From the NCBI GenBank assembly GCA_046533775.1, contig JAWDOO010000002.1, positions 60,001 to 92,000 of the forward strand: a DNA stretch of 32,000 bases. The letters are read 5' to 3'. The translations under genes and the position numbers were made by a program. Shown piece after piece: positions 1,228 to 30,666 of the stretch. How positions within the stretch are numbered: position 1 is the stretch's first letter; the number at the start of each line of letters is the position of its first letter. The notes under the pieces were generated by a model that worked only from the letters and a program-made list of their open reading frames with translations, did no database searches and was not told the DNA's origin. This DNA comes from Candidatus Nanopusillus sp. Its GTDB lineage: Archaea; Nanobdellota; Nanobdellia; Nanobdellales; Nanobdellaceae.

Positions 1228-2478
1228 ATGAAATATATAAATAGAGAAATAGAAGAGAAAATAAATAAACTTATTGGAAGAAAAGAAATAATTGGAATAA
1301 GAGGACCTAGACAAGCTGGGAAAACAACATTATTAAAGAATATTTATGAAAAAATCAATGAAAATAAGGTATATATTGATATGTATATAGATGAATATAG
1401 AAAAAATTTTGAAGAAAATTATATGGATTTTATTAAAAGATATAAAGATGAAAAGAAATTGTTTCTTTTTTTAGATGAGATTCAAAAATTAAAGGATGGT
1501 GGAAAAATATTAAAAATAATATATGATAATTTTAATGATATTAAAATTTTTATATCTGGATCTTCTACATTAGAAATTAATACAAAAATACTTCCAGATT
1601 TAGTTGGAAGATTAATATTATTTACTTTATATCCTTTTAATTTTTATGAATTTTTATTATCAAAAGATAAGGGACTTGCAAATTTAGTAAAAGAAAAAAG
1701 AGAGTCTTTAAGAGGATTTTTAGAAAATGATAATGAAATTAAAAAACCATCTTTTAATGAAGAAATAGTAAAATATCTAAAAGAATATTTAATATACGGA
1801 GGATATCCTGAAATTGCTATAGCGAAAGATTTTGAAGAAAAGAAGATATTATTAAAAAATTTGTATAATTTATATATTGAAAAAGATATTGTAAATTTCT
1901 TCCATATCTATGATTCTTCAAAATTTATAGATCTTACTAAATATTTATCCTTCATAATAGGAAATATTCTAGATATTTCTTTAATTTCTAAAGAATTAAA
2001 AATAAGTTACAGAAAAGTTGAAAATTATATAACAATACTAAAGCATACATATATAATAGATTTAATTGGACCTTTTCATAAAAATATTGTAACAGAATTA
2101 AAGAAAGCTAAAAAGATATATTTTATAGATTTGGGTTTAAGAAATTCTGTTATAGATAATTTTTTAGAATATGATAAAAGAACAGATAAAGGACAATTAT
2201 TAGAAAACTTTGTTTATATAGAATTGTTAAAAAATTTTTCAGATTGGAAAATAAATTATTGGAGAACAACTGGAAAGGCGGAAATAGATTTTATTTTAAC
2301 AAAGGAAAATAAAGTTATTCCAATAGAAGTAAAAACATCTAAAAGAATTAATAAAGGTTTTTATACATTTATTAAGAGATATAAACCGGATAAAGGATTA
2401 ATAATAACTCTAAATGAATTTGATATAAAAGATATTTATAATACAAGAGTATATACTATTCCAGCATATTATATATAA
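1228..2478 (+). CDS. AAA+ superfamily ATPase of the archaeal COG1373 / DUF4143 type
   Basis: N-terminal Walker A (GIRGPRQAGKTTLLK) and Walker B-like (LFLFLDEIQ). The long C-terminal region ending KAEIDFIL..IPIEVK resembles the restriction-endonuclease-like tail typical of this family. Confidence 0.65.
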   Translation: MKYINREIEEKINKLIGRKEIIGIRGPRQAGKTTLLKNIYEKINENKVYIDMYIDEYRKNFEENYMDFIKRYKDEKKLFLFLDEIQKLKDGGKILKIIYDNFNDIKIFISGSSTLEINTKILPDLVGRLILFTLYPFNFYEFLLSKDKGLANLVKEKRESLRGFLENDNEIKKPSFNEEIVKYLKEYLIYGGYPEIAIAKDFEEKKILLKNLYNLYIEKDIVNFFHIYDSSKFIDLTKYLSFIIGNILDISLISKELKISYRKVENYITILKHTYIIDLIGPFHKNIVTELKKAKKIYFIDLGLRNSVIDNFLEYDKRTDKGQLLENFVYIELLKNFSDWKINYWRTTGKAEIDFILTKENKVIPIEVKTSKRINKGFYTFIKRYKPDKGLIITLNEFDIKDIYNTRVYTIPAYYI

Positions 2479-2926: not shown

Positions 2927-4225
2927 ATGGATATTATTATAGGAAGATCATTAGATGATTTAGAAAAATATGGATTAAAAGGCTCAATTTTCATAGGTAA
3001 AGAATATATAAAAATGGAAAATGCTTTATCTTTAGCAAATACGGTTTATCTAGATGTAAATCTTCCACATTTAATATTAATTGCTGGAAAAAGAGGACAA
3101 GGAAAAAGTTATACATTAGCTTCAATATTTGAAAGTTTATCAGATCTTGAAAAAGATTTATTAAATAACTTCTCCGGACTAATATTTGATACAATGGGAA
3201 TATTTTGGACAATGAAATTTCCAAATTATAGAGATGCTGAATTATTGGAAAAATGGGGTTTAAAACCAAAATCAATAAAAAATTGTAGAATACTAGTTCC
3301 TAAAGGTTTATTAGATGAATATAGAAATATAAATATTCCTATAGATGATGTTTTTCAATTAAATCCTGCAGATTTATCGGGAATTGAATGGGTTCTAACA
3401 TTTAATTTAGATCCAACATCAAATATTGCATTATATATACAAAAAATTATAAAAAGAATGAAAGAAAATAATAATGGATATTCTATACAAGATATAATAA
3501 GTTATACAGAAAAATTAGATATAGATAGTAATATGAAAAATGCTATAACCACATACTTTGAAAATGCAGATGGTTGGGGATTATTTTCTGAAAAAGCTGA
3601 AAGTATAAGAAATTTAACAAAGCCAGGTTATATAAATATATTAGATATATCCCTATATACTGCAATAACTGGTGGATGGTCAATAAAAAACTTAGTAATT
3701 GGATTAATATCTAAAAAAATATTTTACCAAAGATTAATATATAGAAAGGTAGAAGAATTAGAAGAAATATATATTTCAAAAGAATTAGGTACAAGAGAAT
3801 TTCCATTAATATGGATTGCAATTGATGAAGCACATGAAGCACTTCCGAACGATTCAATTACACCAGCAACAGAACCATTAATACAGATAATAAGAGAAGG
3901 AAGACAACCAGGTATAACATTAGTATTGGCAACACAGCAACCTGGTAAAATGCATACAGATGTAATTACTCAAAGTGATATAGTTATATCACATAGAGTA
4001 ACTGCAGAAAAGGATTTAAAATCCTTAAATGAAATAATGAAGAATTTTACTGCACAGGATATTGATATATATATGAATGATAATTTACCAAAGAAAAAAG
4101 GTGCTGCTTTAATTTTAGATGATAAATCTGAAAAGATATATCCTGTTCAAATGAAACCGAGAGTTTCTTGGCATGGGGGTTCAGATCCAACTTTAATTAG
4201 AAAGAGATTATGGCTAGAGGGATAG
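2927..4225 (+). CDS. HerA/FtsK-superfamily (DUF87-like) P-loop ATPase
   Basis: Walker A is LILIAGKRGQGKSYT and Walker B is LIWIAIDEAHEALP. The signature REGRQPGITLVLATQQPGKMHTDVITQSDIVISHRVTAEKDLKSL closely follows the HerA/DUF87 pattern (rEGRK.G..l.l.sQrP..l...vlsQ....i..R..n..D). I moved the start to ATG 2927, because the ORF-track GTG start at 2843 overlaps tRNA-Gly. A TTTATTAA box lies at 2896-2903. Confidence 0.7.
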   Translation: MDIIIGRSLDDLEKYGLKGSIFIGKEYIKMENALSLANTVYLDVNLPHLILIAGKRGQGKSYTLASIFESLSDLEKDLLNNFSGLIFDTMGIFWTMKFPNYRDAELLEKWGLKPKSIKNCRILVPKGLLDEYRNINIPIDDVFQLNPADLSGIEWVLTFNLDPTSNIALYIQKIIKRMKENNNGYSIQDIISYTEKLDIDSNMKNAITTYFENADGWGLFSEKAESIRNLTKPGYINILDISLYTAITGGWSIKNLVIGLISKKIFYQRLIYRKVEELEEIYISKELGTREFPLIWIAIDEAHEALPNDSITPATEPLIQIIREGRQPGITLVLATQQPGKMHTDVITQSDIVISHRVTAEKDLKSLNEIMKNFTAQDIDIYMNDNLPKKKGAALILDDKSEKIYPVQMKPRVSWHGGSDPTLIRKRLWLEG

Positions 4226-6390
4226 TAAAGGAAATAGAAGGTATAATTGCAATAGTAATTTTTATTTCATTTTTAACATTTTATTTAGCAATATATAGAG
4301 AATATATAATAAACAATATTAATAATTATAATCAAATAAATTATTATAATAATTATATAAACAATATATTGAATTCAATTGAAACTAAATATTATTTACT
4401 ATCATTAAATGTTTCAATACCATTATCTATGTATTATCAATGTTTACAAAATTCTCCAATATATTATAATTTAAATAATGAATTTGCATATAATGATTTT
4501 TGTACATCATTTCCAATATATTATCCATTAAATATATCCTTTTTAACAAACTATTCTGGTGTATTAAATAATACAAATAATACATATCTAGATCCAAATG
4601 TTGGAATATTCTTTTATGCAAATTTTCTAAATTTTAATACAAGTAATAATCAACCTCAATATGTTTTAATTAATATTTCAAATCCTTCAAACCAAAATTT
4701 AATTAATTATCCAATATTTATAACTTCCACTGATATTTTTTATTGGTTACAAAATGGTTATAATCTATCTGTAAAGGATTTAAATGGAAATAATTATTAT
4801 TTTTGTTATTTAAATAATAATTTAAGTTGTAATAGTTTCAATAATGATGCCTATGGAATCTGGGTTAGTTTAAATATATCTCCATATGGTTATATAATAT
4901 TAAATATTTCTCCAATAAATGGGATAAATAGTTATTCAGTTGATGGAAAAGAAATATTTCCAGTATATGATAATTTTAGTTATCAAAACTATCAACAGTT
5001 TAGTCAATATTGGACAAACAATACTCCTATAAGTATTTCATATATGAATCCGGGAGATGATATTTATAGTACACAGTATAATACTTTTACAATTACTTAT
5101 AAAAACAGCATTTCAAAAGGTAATTATTTAATATTATTTAATATTCAAAATACTGGTTATTATAATGCTTATATAAAATTAGGAGATAATTGTAATATAA
5201 ATCTACCATCTTCTGGAAATTCAAATTCCTTATATGTTTATTATTGTTATAATGATGACAACAATGCTAATTTACAAATATATGGTCAAAATATTAATGC
5301 ATATTATATAAATTTAATTCCCTATAATGTAATACCAAATATAAAAATAATTTATCAACCAAATTTTACTTATAATTATAAATTTATTATAGGTCCGAAT
5401 TTAACTTATGATTTTTCTCAATATAATGATTTAGGCAGTGGAAACATTTTATTATTGAATTCTAATGGTAACTTCGCAATATATAATAATAATTTAGCAT
5501 ATTTTTCTTATCTAACAGATATATATGGCAATGAATATTATTCTATTCCAACAACCCTTTTAAATGCATGTTCTTTATATTTGATAATCGGATTTTCATT
5601 TTATAATTCTGAATACGAGCCTTATAATTTAACTCCCTATGTTTACAATGACTCATTAGCTTTATTATATCTATATAATTCCACAAATCTATCTATAAAG
5701 GATATAATATTTTCTAATACTTATTGGTATATATTTAATACTCAAAAATACTATAATTCAAATAACATGATATTCTGGAATACTTCACAATCTATCTATG
5801 GTTTTATTTTGAATTCTACTAACTTTTATAATAAACTATTCAATCTAAACAATTTATATAACGGATATTTATATTATGAATACGGTAATGGTATAATATT
5901 AAGAATATATATACAAACTATTGGTTGTTTTGGATATTTAAATTCTATATTATATACAAATTATAATCCTATAATAAGCATTTCTTATATTTCGTCATAT
6001 GACAATTATAATAATCTCTATTTCTTAAATGCAACATTAGATAATAGTTATAATTATCAAAATTATTACTTCTATCTATATTCAAATCCAAATTTAGATA
6101 AACAGACAGCAATATATTTAGCATTTTCTACTCAAATTCCATATATTGAAATAAATTATATCAAACCAATAAATGTAATAAATATAAATAATTTAGTTAA
6201 TTTATCCGAAAATTATCAAAATGTATATTTTTATTTTAATAATTTAAATATAACAATATTTAATGGGACAATATATCAGGGAAATATTGTAAATAATTAT
6301 AAATATTCAGAAAACTTTAATGTATATGTTTTAAATAATACAATGATAAATACATTATATAAAGATCAATTAACAATATATATAAAATGA
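4210..6390 (+). CDS. Large N-terminally membrane-anchored, Asn/Tyr-rich putative surface glycoprotein
   Basis: The N-terminus is MARG-IVKEIEGIIAIVIFISFLTFYLAIY, a short basic leader followed by one hydrophobic helix. The remaining ~700 aa are dominated by N, Y, I, L and S. They carry about two dozen N-x-S/T sequons by my manual count and very few Lys or Glu, unlike the K/E-rich cytosolic proteins here. It overlaps the upstream ATPase gene by 16 nt. Confidence 0.6.
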   Translation: MARGIVKEIEGIIAIVIFISFLTFYLAIYREYIINNINNYNQINYYNNYINNILNSIETKYYLLSLNVSIPLSMYYQCLQNSPIYYNLNNEFAYNDFCTSFPIYYPLNISFLTNYSGVLNNTNNTYLDPNVGIFFYANFLNFNTSNNQPQYVLINISNPSNQNLINYPIFITSTDIFYWLQNGYNLSVKDLNGNNYYFCYLNNNLSCNSFNNDAYGIWVSLNISPYGYIILNISPINGINSYSVDGKEIFPVYDNFSYQNYQQFSQYWTNNTPISISYMNPGDDIYSTQYNTFTITYKNSISKGNYLILFNIQNTGYYNAYIKLGDNCNINLPSSGNSNSLYVYYCYNDDNNANLQIYGQNINAYYINLIPYNVIPNIKIIYQPNFTYNYKFIIGPNLTYDFSQYNDLGSGNILLLNSNGNFAIYNNNLAYFSYLTDIYGNEYYSIPTTLLNACSLYLIIGFSFYNSEYEPYNLTPYVYNDSLALLYLYNSTNLSIKDIIFSNTYWYIFNTQKYYNSNNMIFWNTSQSIYGFILNSTNFYNKLFNLNNLYNGYLYYEYGNGIILRIYIQTIGCFGYLNSILYTNYNPIISISYISSYDNYNNLYFLNATLDNSYNYQNYYFYLYSNPNLDKQTAIYLAFSTQIPYIEINYIKPINVININNLVNLSENYQNVYFYFNNLNITIFNGTIYQGNIVNNYKYSENFNVYVLNNTMINTLYKDQLTIYIK

Positions 6391-6707
6391 GAAGCTGGAT
6401 AATTTTAGTAGAACTAGCATTTTCAATAATATTATTAACATTTTTCTTTTTATATATTTATTACGGCAAATCTAGCAATTATAATATTTATAATTTTGAT
6501 CCAAATAATTTAATTTACTTAAATTCTTCATGTAATAATAATTTATATATATATGAAATAATAAACCTAACAAGTAACAATATTACAATATGTTACTTTG
6601 GAAAACAAGTAAATTCAACATATATAGAAAATTATGAACCAATATTTGAATATTTATATGCAGGCCAAAATTATTTTAATCCATATATATTAATTATATT
6701 TGGATGA
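6387..6707 (+). CDS. Small pilin-like secreted or membrane protein
   Basis: MRS-WIILVELAFSIILLTFFFLYIYY has a 3-aa leader followed by a hydrophobic helix with Glu at +6. The body is N/Y-rich with sequons (NSS, NLT, NIT, NST). ATGA overlaps at both ends suggest translational coupling. Confidence 0.5.
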   Translation: MRSWIILVELAFSIILLTFFFLYIYYGKSSNYNIYNFDPNNLIYLNSSCNNNLYIYEIINLTSNNITICYFGKQVNSTYIENYEPIFEYLYAGQNYFNPYILIIFG

Positions 6708-7144
6708 AATCTCAATATATATTATTAGCAACAATTGCAATTATTATTATTTTATCTTTTATTACATATTATAATCTCTCTCCAATAAATAATATTAATC
6801 CAAATTTGATAGGAGAGAATTTTGAAGACCAAATAATATATATATATCAAAATTTTGGTTATAATTATATATCTAATTATACATTATATTTTGAAAATTA
6901 TACAAATGAAATTAATTATAATTTTTCTTTCATTTGTATATCTTCATATAATTTATCAATTCAAGAATGTAATGGAAATAATATAAATTGTTGTTATTAT
7001 TTTAAAGGATTTTTTATTGTAAATCAAAGTATATTAAAATATTGTAATGAAAACTTTATTTTATATAATCCACCAAATTGGATTTGTTTTTGTTATAATG
7101 TAAATAATTCTAATAGTTATTATATTAATTTCTTTTGTGTCTAA
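6704..7144 (+). CDS. Small pilin-like, Cys-rich secreted or membrane protein
   Basis: MKS-QYILLATIAIIIILSFITYY leader plus hydrophobic helix. The body is N/Y-rich with about 9 Cys and several sequons (NLS, NYT, NFS, NQS, NNS). Confidence 0.5.
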   Translation: MKSQYILLATIAIIIILSFITYYNLSPINNINPNLIGENFEDQIIYIYQNFGYNYISNYTLYFENYTNEINYNFSFICISSYNLSIQECNGNNINCCYYFKGFFIVNQSILKYCNENFILYNPPNWICFCYNVNNSNSYYINFFCV

Positions 7145-7611
7145 CATAAACTAATATATAAACCAGATTCATTCTTATCTAATAATAAACATAAATTATT
7201 TGTAATTGTAAGACTAGAACTATTTAATATATTAAATGGAATTGTATTAATAGTAAAATTATATTCATAATCATATACAGATAATTGAGTTATATTTAAA
7301 TTTATATATGGCGGAACTTGTAAAGAATAATTTACAGTAGAATAATATATACACATTATTTCCCCCGGATAAATATATATGATTGTTTTTGATGGTAAAT
7401 TATCATAAACTTTATAATTACATGAATAACAAGATCCAATTGTCTCTATTTGATAATTTAAATTTGTTAATAAATTTACAATATATTTTAAGTTTAATTC
7501 ATCCTGTTGATTCTGAACTGCTAAATGAACAAAATATAATACAAAAGACAATATAGAAAGAGCAAATGCAGTATATATTAAAAATTCAATCCATAAACTT
7601 ACACCTCTCAT
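7141..7611 (-). CDS. Small pilin-like secreted or membrane protein, encoded downstream of rps19e
   Basis: MRG-VSLWIEFLIYTAFALSILSFVLYF is the best class III signal-like N-terminus in the window: [KR]G, then a hydrophobic helix with Glu at +6. The body is N/Y-rich with sequons (NYS, NIT, NFT, NSS, NES) and 6 Cys. Its ATG overlaps the rps19e stop (ATGA). Confidence 0.5.
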   Translation of the reverse strand: MRGVSLWIEFLIYTAFALSILSFVLYFVHLAVQNQQDELNLKYIVNLLTNLNYQIETIGSCYSCNYKVYDNLPSKTIIYIYPGEIMCIYYSTVNYSLQVPPYINLNITQLSVYDYEYNFTINTIPFNILNSSSLTITNNLCLLLDKNESGLYISLC

Positions 7612-8117
7612 GAAACAGATTTTATATAATCAATTAAATTCTTATTTTCATTATTTAATTCTTTATATATTTCATTAGCTAATTTATCTAATAAACTTCT
7701 TCCATTATTTGTTACAATTCTTCCTTTTTTCTTTCCTTCATTTATTTTCATAACCAATCCAGCATTTTCCAATTGATGTAATATTTCTCTTATTAATTTT
7801 CCATATCCTCTTACAACTTTTCCAGGTTCCATTCCTCTTTTTCTCAATCCAGAATATTTTCTTCTTAATCTGGAAATACCAATTGGTCCATATAAATATA
7901 CTTTTCTTAAAATTGATGCTGCTCTATAATACCACCATCCAGGTCCTCCATTATAATCTACATCCGCTGGAAAATCTGGATTCCTTTCTTTATCTGGCCC
8001 TGTTTTAATAAAAAATGCCCAACTTGGTGGTTTTATTATATCTTTATAATTTTCGAATAAATATTTAGCTAATCTTTCTACAAATATTTGACCATTTACA
8101 TCTCTTACAGATACCAT
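7608..8117 (-). CDS. rps19e: 30S ribosomal protein S19e (eS19)
   Basis: VSVRDVNGQIFVERLAKYL..PSWAFFIKTG..ERNP..WWYYRAASILRKVYL.GPIGISRLRRKYSG matches the eS19 family pattern. I placed the start at ATG 8117, because the ORF-track start at 8126 is a TTG. Confidence 0.9.
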   Translation of the reverse strand: MVSVRDVNGQIFVERLAKYLFENYKDIIKPPSWAFFIKTGPDKERNPDFPADVDYNGGPGWWYYRAASILRKVYLYGPIGISRLRRKYSGLRKRGMEPGKVVRGYGKLIREILHQLENAGLVMKINEGKKKGRIVTNNGRSLLDKLANEIYKELNNENKNLIDYIKSVS

Positions 8118-28983: not shown

Positions 28984-30666
28984 ATGCAAAACATAAAAAT
29001 TGATGATTTAAGGAATGAAAATATTGAGGATAATAAACATAAAATATTAGAAATAAAACTTATATTAGATAATCCAAATATAAAAATGGAACAAATATAT
29101 TTTTGGCTTGTAGATTTTATTAGAGATAGTTTAAAAATGGATATTAATAAATTATCAGATGATTTTACATCATCTGTTGCATCTTCATTTTTTGGAGAGA
29201 TGGGTCAAAGATTATCAAATGTATTAAATAATGCAAGATCATTGGCAGAATTAATTAATGCATTGACAAGAACAATTATTTCTATTTTAAATGAATATAA
29301 ACAGCTTTATTCAATATATGTTTTATACGAAAATTTATTATCAAAAAATAAAGAAGAAGCTATTGCAAGTTATACAGAATTAAAAGATAGATGGTTATCT
29401 TATGTTGATTCTACAAGGGGTGCAGGTGCTTTAAGGAATTTACAAACATCAAGGTTTCCAAGTATTGTAGATCTATTTTTTCTAGCAGAGCTAAAATCTG
29501 AATTAGAAAAACTTAAGAATAAAAAATTAATAGGAGAAGAATTATATAATGAATTATTTAATAATCAAGAAAATACTGTTCCAAGAGATTTAAATGAATT
29601 ATTTAATAATGGGATAATAAATAGAAGAATATATAATTTATTAAATAGTAGATTAATAGATTTTTATAGTTGGCTTGAAAATAATAAAAAAGTTTTATAT
29701 GATAGAATAATTTTATTAAAATCTTATTTAAAACATGAATTAAGCTCATTATTATATTATGTTGAATTTGCAAAACCATATTTTAAATTTGCAAGAAAAT
29801 TATTACAAAGTCCTGATCAACCTGTAGATGTTGTAAATGCATTTGAAACAGCAATTATAAATATTTCATTAATAGCAAATCAAAATGAGATAAAAGTAAA
29901 AGAATATAACGAAAAAGAAGGAAAAGAAATAGAAAAGTCTTATATACCATTATATGAAATTGATATGAAAGCAAGAGCAATACCCACTGTAGTTGGAAGA
30001 ACAGATTCATATACAAGAATGTATTCTTTCTTAGGAAGGATTGATATAGTACTTAGAGCATATTTAGTTGAAAAAGAAGAATATGATTCAATAATAATAA
30101 ATCAGGAAAGTGAAGATTTAACATATATAACTGGATTAACAGATGATTATATAAAAAGTATGTCTGATTTAATTTTAGAAACATTTTTATATGATATAAT
30201 AAAAAGTGATGAAAATTTATTAAAAATAGTTGCTGAAAAATCTAATGTAAAACCAGAAGAAATAAAAAATGACCCTTATAAAATAAGATGGACAAGGGAA
30301 CTTTTAGAAGAATTAGAAAAAGATGAAAAAATAAAAAGAGCATTATCAAGTATTACATGGATAAAAAAATATCTTGAAAGTGAAAAAAAAGAGAAAAAAG
30401 AAGATAAAAAGGAGGAAAAGAAAGAAGAAAAAAAAGAATCAAGTATTTCATTAATATTCCCAAATTTAGGAAATATTATAATATGGTTACTTAAATTTAT
30501 ATCAACTTTTGGCAAAGATATCACAAGTATTGAAAAAAATATAAAAAAGAAAAATATTGAAGAGGAAAAAAAATCAATAATTGATGAAACAAAAGAAAAG
30601 ACAATAGATACTGCATGGAAAATATATATGACATTTAAAAAGACATTCGGTATGTTAAATTATTAA
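28984..30666 (+). CDS. Hypothetical 560-aa protein: helical, with a KE-repeat linker and a C-terminal hydrophobic segment
   Basis: Long clean ATG ORF. It has a low-complexity stretch EKKEKKEDKKEEKKEEKKE followed by a hydrophobic segment ISLIFPNLGNIIIWLLKFISTFG. I recognise no catalytic motif. Confidence 0.55.
   Translation: MQNIKIDDLRNENIEDNKHKILEIKLILDNPNIKMEQIYFWLVDFIRDSLKMDINKLSDDFTSSVASSFFGEMGQRLSNVLNNARSLAELINALTRTIISILNEYKQLYSIYVLYENLLSKNKEEAIASYTELKDRWLSYVDSTRGAGALRNLQTSRFPSIVDLFFLAELKSELEKLKNKKLIGEELYNELFNNQENTVPRDLNELFNNGIINRRIYNLLNSRLIDFYSWLENNKKVLYDRIILLKSYLKHELSSLLYYVEFAKPYFKFARKLLQSPDQPVDVVNAFETAIINISLIANQNEIKVKEYNEKEGKEIEKSYIPLYEIDMKARAIPTVVGRTDSYTRMYSFLGRIDIVLRAYLVEKEEYDSIIINQESEDLTYITGLTDDYIKSMSDLILETFLYDIIKSDENLLKIVAEKSNVKPEEIKNDPYKIRWTRELLEELEKDEKIKRALSSITWIKKYLESEKKEKKEDKKEEKKEEKKESSISLIFPNLGNIIIWLLKFISTFGKDITSIEKNIKKKNIEEEKKSIIDETKEKTIDTAWKIYMTFKKTFGMLNY

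Follow-up and report, generated by a model that had tools for sequence, protein, structure and literature searches.

Why should a HerA-like ATPase gene stand at the head of a run of genes for small, Asn-rich surface proteins in a nanoarchaeon? The question arises from a stretch of 32,000 nt of Candidatus Nanopusillus sp. (called the window in the following), in which a P-loop ATPase of 432 amino acids (aa) is followed by four open reading frames (ORFs) coding for proteins of 726, 106, 146 and 156 aa. An initial annotation of this DNA had read the cluster as a surface-filament or host-attachment module in which the ATPase drives pilin-like substrates. The five ORFs, their overlaps, the ATPase motifs and the N-termini described there were all recovered at the same positions, and we compared the cluster with fetched loci labelled L001 to L134. 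The reading we favour, to which we give about an even chance, is that the four genes encode a type-IV-pilin-like glycoprotein set served by canonical machinery, and that this set lies beside an unrelated HerA-like ATPase. Most likely it is an unannotated, lineage-specific set of one large adhesin-like protein and three small minor-pilin-like subunits.

The evidence for this begins at the N-termini. Each of the four non-ATPase proteins contains one hydrophobic segment in a Kyte-Doolittle scan, and in each it is N-terminal. The sequences start with MARG-IVKEIEG... (726 aa), MRS-WIILVE... (106 aa), MKS-QYILLA... (146 aa) and MRG-VSLWIE... (156 aa); a short basic leader of 3-4 residues, with K/R at -2 and mostly G/S at -1, precedes a helix of about 22 residues. 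This leader is strongly constrained: in about 90 orthologue N-termini, position 2 (in the large protein, position 3) is always K/R, and about 95% have G or S after it. A Glu at +6 from the putative cleavage point, which had been noticed in two of the proteins, is indeed invariant in the 106-aa and the 156-aa families; the same holds for Glu10 of the 726-aa family, where the leader has four residues, so that three of the four families carry it. A strict class-III-like filter, asking for K/R and then G/A/S within the first residues followed by an uninterrupted hydrophobic stretch, was passed solely by the three small proteins among the window ORFs of at least 60 aa.

Behind the helix the four proteins are unusual in composition. 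They consist to 11-19% of N and to 11-15% of Y, and K+E make up 4-7%, versus 8-32% in the 35 other proteins of the window. N-x-S/T sequons are found at 3.2-4.8 per 100 aa versus 0-1.4 elsewhere in the window, the 726-aa protein having 26 of them, and the excess over shuffles of each protein's own composition corresponds to z values of 1.7-3.0. The genes aglB/D/E are present in Nanobdella, and surface N-acetylglucosamine (GlcNAc) has been shown for Nanopusillus acidilobi. Cys residues invariant across orthologues number eight in the 146-aa protein, four in the 156-aa protein, two in the 106-aa protein and four in the large protein, a pattern consistent with disulfide-bonded ectodomains. In the 106-aa family (orthologues in L005, L006, L008 and L085) the invariant positions are R2, W4, E9, C49 and C69, and in the 156-aa family E9, C61, C64, C141 and C156. 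That the four proteins are pilin-like glycoproteins, as initially proposed, is therefore supported by the leaders, the single transmembrane segment, the sequon excess and the invariant Cys, and also by the related loci described below.

Ratios of nonsynonymous to synonymous substitution rates (dN/dS), computed against 20-26 Nanopusillus population contigs, are 0.24 (726 aa), 0.12 (106 aa), 0.20 (146 aa) and 0.28 (156 aa), in comparison to 0.055 for the ATPase and about 0.1 for S19e, L37ae and ZPR1. Because of these values we regard the four ORFs as real genes which are under purifying selection and evolve faster than their neighbours. The same fast-evolving pattern was described for the "hypothetical external" proteins of Nanoarchaeota (Jarett et al. 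2018).

The cluster is conserved within its family. The order ATPase, large protein, 106-aa, 146-aa and 156-aa protein (the latter on the reverse strand) and S19e recurs in Nanobdella aerobiophila (AP019769, with the four genes after the ATPase at 551,061-554,360), in NZ13-N and in another metagenome-assembled genome (MAG) of the Nanopusillaceae, the same five-gene order is seen in about 25 Nanopusillus population contigs, and the five ORFs are conserved across Nanopusillaceae (Nanopusillus, Nanobdella, YN1, NZ13-N). The counterpart in N. acidilobi is the run Nps_02800-02825, where the ATPase Nps_02800 has been placed in arCOG00284 and the four genes behind it are entered as unknowns with a single transmembrane segment. 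The length of the large protein ranges between 534 and 755 aa, and its divergence is much faster than that of the ATPase (53% versus 89% identity in YN1); an NCBI MAG protein is 100% identical to the 726-aa sequence of the window. Its family is confined to Nanopusillaceae, L009 and L133, and with its alignment close Nanopusillus relatives alone were retrieved from metagenomes (78-91% identity).

A separate observation concerns expression. None of the five orthologues Nps_02800-02820 is found in the published shotgun proteome of N. acidilobi, in which the adjacent S19e was detected. For the four surface proteins this absence is uninformative, because they are K/R-poor glycoproteins and the digestion was by trypsin; in the case of the ATPase it points to a low abundance.

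The leader of only three residues finds a parallel in the same family of organisms. The Arch_flagellin model (PF01917) matches a 152-aa protein in L134 and a 146-aa protein in L009; the Nanopusillaceae archaellin-like protein of L134 begins with MKG-IATVISYVLLF... and the adjoining DUF2341 protein with MKT-NSIIIG.... Because these Pfam-recognised archaellin-like and DUF2341 proteins begin likewise, the 3-residue leader appears to be the version of the class III signal used in this lineage.

Which machinery could handle such proteins? No PilB/FlaI or PilC/FlaJ gene lies within the 32-kb window, and to this extent the initial annotation was right. Its further step to a system working without PilB and PilC is not supported, since a T2SSE ATPase and TadC are encoded elsewhere in N. 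acidilobi and adjoin homologous pilin-like genes in the sister lineage L133. In N. acidilobi we found FlaI/FlaH, a second VirB11-type ATPase and two TadC genes at other loci. In L133 (assembly GCA_054017035.1), the ATPase of which is 67% identical, the genes for an M48 protease, the ATPase, a 541-aa homologue of the large protein, a 92-aa protein and a 130-aa protein (MKSQ...) stand in this order, and directly after the 130-aa gene follow two T2SSF (TadC-type) genes and one T2SSE (PilB/FlaI-type) gene. The 130-aa protein aligns with the 146-aa family at an hhalign E-value of 6e-6 (85% probability), and the 92-aa counterpart aligns with the 106-aa family at E 0.023, which is not significant beyond the helix. 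This counterpart of the 106-aa protein (L133:9621-9899) begins with MLQVLEAAIAI..., lacks the MRS leader and has the Glu in register; the missing leader would fit a dispensable, removable peptide. In L009 the ATPase and the large protein are followed by an NTPase gene, the archaellin-like gene, a second pilin-like gene and the start of a DUF2341 protein, and homologues of this pilin-like and DUF2341 pair are located just upstream of the ATPase in L134.

The cluster can be compared best with the archaeal type IV pilus loci that combine minor pilins and DUF2341 tip adhesins (Methanococcus Epd-type and euryarchaeal clades; PMC4858521). Common to both are one large and several small proteins, the short basic leader before an N-terminal hydrophobic helix, ectodomains that are glycosylated and beta-rich (here by prediction), and a neighbourhood with T2SSE/T2SSF genes in L133 and with archaellin-like and DUF2341 genes in L134 and L009. 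They differ in that here no significant pilin, archaellin or DUF2341 match is obtained, the leader comprises only 3-4 residues, Glu is at +6, the motor and platform genes of Nanopusillaceae are located elsewhere, a HerA-like ATPase is the first gene of the operon, and a prepilin peptidase has not been identified in nanoarchaea. Large DUF2341 proteins were considered likely pilus-tip adhesins, and one nanoarchaeal type IV pilus ATPase clade was found to be without identifiable pilins (Makarova et al. 2016; PMC4858521). Two type IV pilus systems and an archaellum were reported for Nanoarchaeota by Jarett et al. 2018, and Nanobdella makes functional archaella.

On this basis we propose that the four proteins would enter the membrane via the N-terminal leader and helix. 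Their ectodomains may contain disulfide bonds and receive N-glycans from AglB. Extraction and polymerisation would then fall to a conventional type IV pilus machine, consisting of a T2SSE ATPase and a TadC platform encoded elsewhere, and the product would likely form or cap a thin adhesive filament for host contact. The HerA-like ATPase would have no part in this; as a putative hexameric NTP-driven translocase on DNA it would probably be co-transcribed with the pilin-like genes merely through an inherited, tightly packed gene order.

The large protein was examined further for its family. DUF2341 appeared in 2 of 14 members with a Pfam E-value of 3.1, and residues 148-226 align in register with the DUF2341 region of the L134 protein at a non-significant hhalign E-value of 0.1; the register is suggestive, but we do not claim membership of DUF2341. 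A PDB profile search with the large-protein family returned noise alone. The three small proteins, used as one concatenated query against an index of 5.8 billion proteins, gave no match, though orthologues exist in the fetched loci. The 156-aa protein, compared with the archaellin-like proteins of L009 and L134, showed no signal beyond the N-terminal helix. Apart from these searches we noticed a 52-nt stretch, 73% identical between window positions 4759-4810 and 6947-6998, which encodes a motif common to the 726-aa (YNLSVKDLNGNNYYFCY) and the 146-aa (YNLSIQECNGNNINCCY) proteins. Such a stretch could go back to a common ancestor of the two genes or to an exchange of domains between them.

The ATPase itself is HerA-like. 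Pfam DUF87 scores 41.5 bits (cut-off 23.2) and HerA_C 24.5 bits (cut-off 22), and the Walker A motif GKRGQGKS, the Walker B motif IDEAHE and the REGRQPG...SHR motif are present and invariant in the family. The protein is soluble, has no transmembrane segment and consists of a mini N-terminal beta-barrel and a RecA-type core. Its AlphaFold2 (AF2) model is of high quality, with a predicted local distance difference test score (pLDDT) of 90 and a predicted TM-score (pTM) of 0.90. The initial annotation had left it to a fold search whether the ATPase belongs with HerA, with CedB/VirB4 or with A32-like packaging enzymes; it groups with HerA, as all of the best 50 Foldseek matches in the PDB are HerA DNA translocases, led by S. 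solfataricus 4d2i (E 1e-16) and the T. kodakarensis HerA-NurA complex 9x1m (TM-score 0.67), and no PilB, VirB4, TrwB or FtsK structure is among these 50. A T2SSE domain was not matched either; pilT_fam reached E 0.022 over the P-loop alone and GspE about 0.9.

The ATPase is nevertheless not the HerA of the HerA-NurA repair system (S. solfataricus 4D2I; T. kodakarensis 9X1L/9X1M). The fold agrees over 440-470 columns (E 1e-16, TM-scores 0.59-0.67), including the N-terminal beta-barrel, the RecA core and the DUF87 and HerA_C signatures, but the protein is only 18-19% identical and 70-150 residues shorter. It scores 31.1 bits against the HerA equivalog NF040937 (cut-off 800) and 29.5 bits against NF040819 (cut-off 970), and no nurA, mre11 or rad50 gene neighbours it in about 90 loci. 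N. acidilobi has a separate true HerA, Nps_01240 (arCOG00280), and a NurA, Nps_03440, both detected in its proteome, and we therefore assign the ATPase to an arCOG00284 paralogue rather than to the repair HerA. A HerA that has its NurA partners elsewhere and no linkage to the downstream genes had been named initially as the case that would refute the proposed module. It describes this locus only in part, as the true HerA is another protein. The annotation "HerA helicase" is misleading for this gene, which is a distinct phylum-wide paralogue with a probably DNA-related role; its relatives point to a DNA-directed ring translocase.

The distribution of the ATPase is much wider than that of the surface proteins. 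Relatives were found by genome scan in at least 588 species-level Nanoarchaeota genomes, the members in Woesearchaeales, Pacearchaeales and related groups being 45-50% identical, and an exhaustive profile search with the family gave 400 cluster representatives at E<=1e-30. The gene is single-copy and vertically conserved across the phylum, and its divergence tracks that of the neighbouring ribosomal proteins. Conservation of the synteny between ATPase and surface genes, suggested initially as a check, was confirmed for Nanopusillaceae and is mostly lacking beyond them: downstream genes with an N-terminal transmembrane segment are absent at about 75 of the 84 sampled ATPase loci and present solely in the Nanopusillaceae loci and in L009. 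Elsewhere the neighbours vary and include DnaG, an RFC-like ATPase, FEN-1, a PpiD-like rotamase and tRNA synthetases, and in a lineage with 58% identity it is a radical-SAM gene that shares 4 nt with the ATPase gene. In other orders, 2-4 of 82 loci have a T2SSE or A24 gene close to the ATPase, about the frequency expected by chance.

One neighbour recurs. In 16 of 82 Nanoarchaeota loci the arCOG00284-type ATPase has a gene for an M48 (HtpX-like) membrane metalloprotease at a distance of 0-2.2 kb, about ten times as often as expected by chance and in at least four arrangements. The M48 gene overlaps the start of the ATPase gene in L009 (5141-6001) and L133 (5881-6741); further loci with an M48 gene near the ATPase are L010, L023, L026, L028, L034, L042, L045, L049, L054, L059, L065, L068, L073, L081 and L083. 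This recurrence may mean that the ATPase is linked to the membrane or to protein quality control. Several homologues (P0174-P0189, P0248) are 580-1370 aa long and interrupted by inteins near profile positions of about 60, just after the P-loop, and about 317; in P0248 Pfam identifies Intein_splicing and LAGLIDADG domains. Among the more distant relatives, P0234 and P0236 (the latter from Diapherotrites) have C-terminal winged-helix DNA-binding (wHTH) domains fused, P0244 and P0273 have DUF835 fused, and P0229 from Lokiarchaeota comprises 925 aa with an N-terminal extension of 270 aa. A marine Nanoarchaeota MAG (L047) harbours two tandem paralogues, one at 4641-5969 and one in an ORF starting 22 nt downstream.

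Several observations weigh against a pilin-like set that merely happens to lie beside a DNA translocase. The four proteins match no Pfam or NCBIfam model at E<=1, the curated pilin and archaellin models including Arch_flagellin among them, and the AF2 model of the 726-aa protein (helices 2-36 and 40-58, then beta strands), built from a 32-sequence alignment, is unreliable with a pLDDT of 41, so that no structure supports a pilin fold. The -1 position is occasionally taken by N, T, D, V or I. The gene table of N. acidilobi lists no A24 prepilin peptidase, and two nanoarchaea were reported to be without a recognisable one (Makarova et al. 2016; PMC4858521). As N. acidilobi has dozens of single-transmembrane proteins of unknown function, a run of four of them is not special in itself. 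On the side of the ATPase, the DNA substrate is taken from its relatives, and a purely DNA-directed role fits poorly, because the M48/HtpX membrane protease recurs beside it in other orders. Finally, the genes for the ATPase and the large protein are kept adjacent, overlapping by 4-28 nt, in Nanopusillaceae, L133 and L009 despite rearranged flanks, which could reflect selection for co-expression; the overlap itself may also make the pair hard to separate.

The first part of these objections would suit proteins that are not pilins at all. The four could be signal-anchored (type II) or Sec-exported glycoproteins, host-recognition or S-layer-associated, which are neither cleaved by a prepilin peptidase nor polymerised, again next to an unrelated ATPase. 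Besides the missing model matches and peptidase, the variable -1 position and the many uncharacterized single-transmembrane proteins of N. acidilobi, this would agree with the dN/dS values of 0.12-0.28, as hypothetical external proteins of Nanoarchaeota diversify quickly. It would also agree with the lack of kinship among the three small families, for which no signal was detected beyond the N-terminal helix. However, three of the four families have an invariant acidic residue within this helix, a feature that is typical of type IV pilins and would be unusual in a Sec anchor; the [KR][GS] dipeptide is under strong constraint, and the leader is of identical style to that of an archaellin-like protein from the same family. 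In addition, the homologues adjoin T2SSF and T2SSE genes in L133 and archaellin-like and DUF2341 genes in L134 and L009. We consider plain anchors possible, though doubtful.

The initial proposal, in contrast, would tie the ATPase to the pilin-like proteins, which it would drive or assist in a non-canonical apparatus, be it a surface filament or one for attachment or transfer. This could, for example, belong to the attachment organelle of Nanobdellales, as its filament or portal, or be a competence-like DNA-uptake device in which a DNA pump is joined to a pseudopilus. The gene layout, given in Table 1, is the first argument for it.

Table 1. Coordinates of the cluster and of the adjoining ribosomal protein gene within the window.
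Feature	Position	Strand	Characteristics
HerA-like P-loop ATPase, 432 aa	2927..4225	+	Pfam DUF87 and HerA_C above cut-offs; AF2 pLDDT 90; no transmembrane segment
Large surface protein, 726 aa	4210..6390	+	leader and hydrophobic helix, then beta-rich, Cys-containing, sequon-dense ectodomain (predicted); possible adhesin or large subunit of pilin type
Codons 1-31 of the 726-aa gene	4210..4302	+	leader M-x-[KR]-G, invariant Glu10, hydrophobic helix
Small pilin-like protein, 106 aa (MRS-WIILVE...)	6387..6707	+	passes class-III-like filter
Small pilin-like protein, 146 aa (MKS-QYILLA...)	6704..7144	+	8 invariant Cys
Small pilin-like protein, 156 aa (MRG-VSLWIE...)	7141..7611	-	convergent with 146-aa gene, co-oriented with S19e
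Ribosomal protein S19e gene (outside the module)	7608..8117	-	Pfam Ribosomal_S19e, E 1.6e-41

From the ATPase to the 156-aa gene the successive overlaps are 16, 4, 4 and 4 nt, and the ATPase, 726-aa, 106-aa and 146-aa genes, being co-directional and overlapping, probably form one transcript. The start of the ATPase was set at the internal ATG at 2927, because the tRNA-Gly gene ends at 2848; the spacer of 78 nt upstream of it has about 80% A+T and several TATA-like strings, and is not interpretable. Overlap is, however, the norm in this genome: 18 of the 39 adjacent gene pairs in the window overlap, by 1-41 nt and with convergent pairs among them, and functionally unrelated genes such as S19e and the 156-aa protein, ZPR1 and SepF, or the hypothetical gene o180 and L32e are joined in this way. 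Therefore an overlap is no evidence of functional coupling here. The 156-aa gene belongs to the transcription unit of S19e instead, because the 3' end of S19e, which lies upstream of it, reaches over its start by 4 nt; this arrangement is also found in L001, L085 and L134.

More can be said for a coupled ATPase than the layout. The conserved pair with the large protein has been mentioned, genes related to type IV pili stand beside the ATPase in three lineages, the ATPase is not the repair HerA, and the genes for the attachment organelle, the 8-nm filament, the nanotubes and the second, 15-nm appendage are still to be assigned. Accessory RecA-fold ATPases in pilus-like machines, such as ArlH of the archaellum and CedB of the Ced system, provide a precedent. 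In the Ced/Ted DNA import of Crenarchaeota the HerA/VirB4-clade ATPase CedB works with small membrane or pilin-like proteins, to our knowledge the sole described archaeal case of an FtsK-HerA/VirB4-clade ATPase with a pilus-like structure and so the nearest precedent. The ATPase studied here differs from it, as it reaches only 15.3 bits against the NCBIfam CedD model (cut-off 600), no VirB4-like or TraG-like structure is among its top 50 matches, and the cluster contains no polytopic CedA-like protein.

Further points stand against the coupling. The ATPase is kept at 45-50% identity in Woesearchaeales, Pacearchaeales and related groups without such neighbours, and it overlaps a radical-SAM gene in one lineage; T2SSE or A24 genes accompany it in other orders about as often as expected by chance; it has no membrane segment; PilB, VirB4 and FtsK are absent from its top 50 matches; and canonical T2SSE and TadC proteins are available in these genomes, in L133 even next door. 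An ATPase that is phylum-wide, mostly solitary and of HerA fold is a poor candidate for the motor of the pilin-like proteins, and we do not uphold this part of the initial annotation: a functional coupling of the two is, in our judgement, unlikely to be real. A more particular form of it, in which the arCOG00284 ATPase acts at the membrane as motor or accessory ATPase of an undescribed envelope apparatus, its partners being the pilin-like proteins in Nanoarchaeales and the HtpX-like M48 protease in other orders, seems slightly less probable still. As such an apparatus one could think of the filament or portal of the attachment organelle, or of a device that links a pseudopilus with the translocation of DNA or protein from the host.

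An integrated virus or plasmid remnant next to tRNA genes, with the ATPase as genome-packaging enzyme and the four proteins as structural glycoproteins, had been offered initially as an alternative; two tRNA genes directly upstream, weak partial PHROG matches of the ATPase to terminase-, FtsK- and Zot-like families and STIV B204 at E of about 0.005-0.03 in PDB sequence searches would speak for it, but we reject it as highly improbable, since the ATPase is single-copy and vertically inherited across the phylum, the synteny with S19e, L37ae, SepF and GluRS is conserved whereas the tRNA adjacency is not, the window shows no compositional anomaly (G+C about 22% throughout) and no att-like repeat (none had been seen initially either), the best IMG/VR match is only 26% identical, A32-like packaging ATPases match at E of about 1e-2 and TM-scores of 0.22-0.25 versus 1e-16 for HerA, and the four proteins have no meaningful PHROG matches.

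A role in defence was considered as well, because the ATPase matches PADLOC mad8 at E 6e-23 and HerA models. Its matches to mad8 and to the HerA partners of anti-phage systems (Sir2-HerA, DUF4297-HerA, TdpAB) are second only to those to archaeal HerA. Unlike in these systems, no Sir2, DUF4297 or nuclease partner is adjacent, and the distribution is not patchy as expected of a defence island; we rejected this role on account of the phylum-wide single-copy occurrence and the housekeeping synteny.

Returning to a pilin-like glycoprotein set served by canonical machinery, its value lies in the biology of the group. The envelope structures made by cultivated members of the Nanobdellales (Nanobdella, YN1, YN4) include nanotubes, an attachment organelle that has an 8-nm filament, and a second (15-nm) appendage, and the genes of all these are unassigned. 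Because the operon products are conserved, fast-evolving and glycoprotein-like, they supply candidate subunits and a candidate adhesin for these envelope structures, which can be tested in existing co-cultures. The finding is of moderate interest to specialists, as components of the attachment organelle, the nanotubes and the second appendage are still to be found.

Two further proteins of the window should be mentioned. Upstream of the two tRNA genes a 416-aa ATPase with AAA_14 and DUF4143 domains is encoded (1228-2478, plus strand), which matches the PADLOC candidate defence family PDC-S01 at E 6e-88. Far downstream of the cluster, a 560-aa protein without a Pfam match (28984-30666, plus strand) has a Lys/Glu repeat (EKKEKKEDKKEEKKEEKKE) and, after it, a hydrophobic stretch close to the C-terminus.

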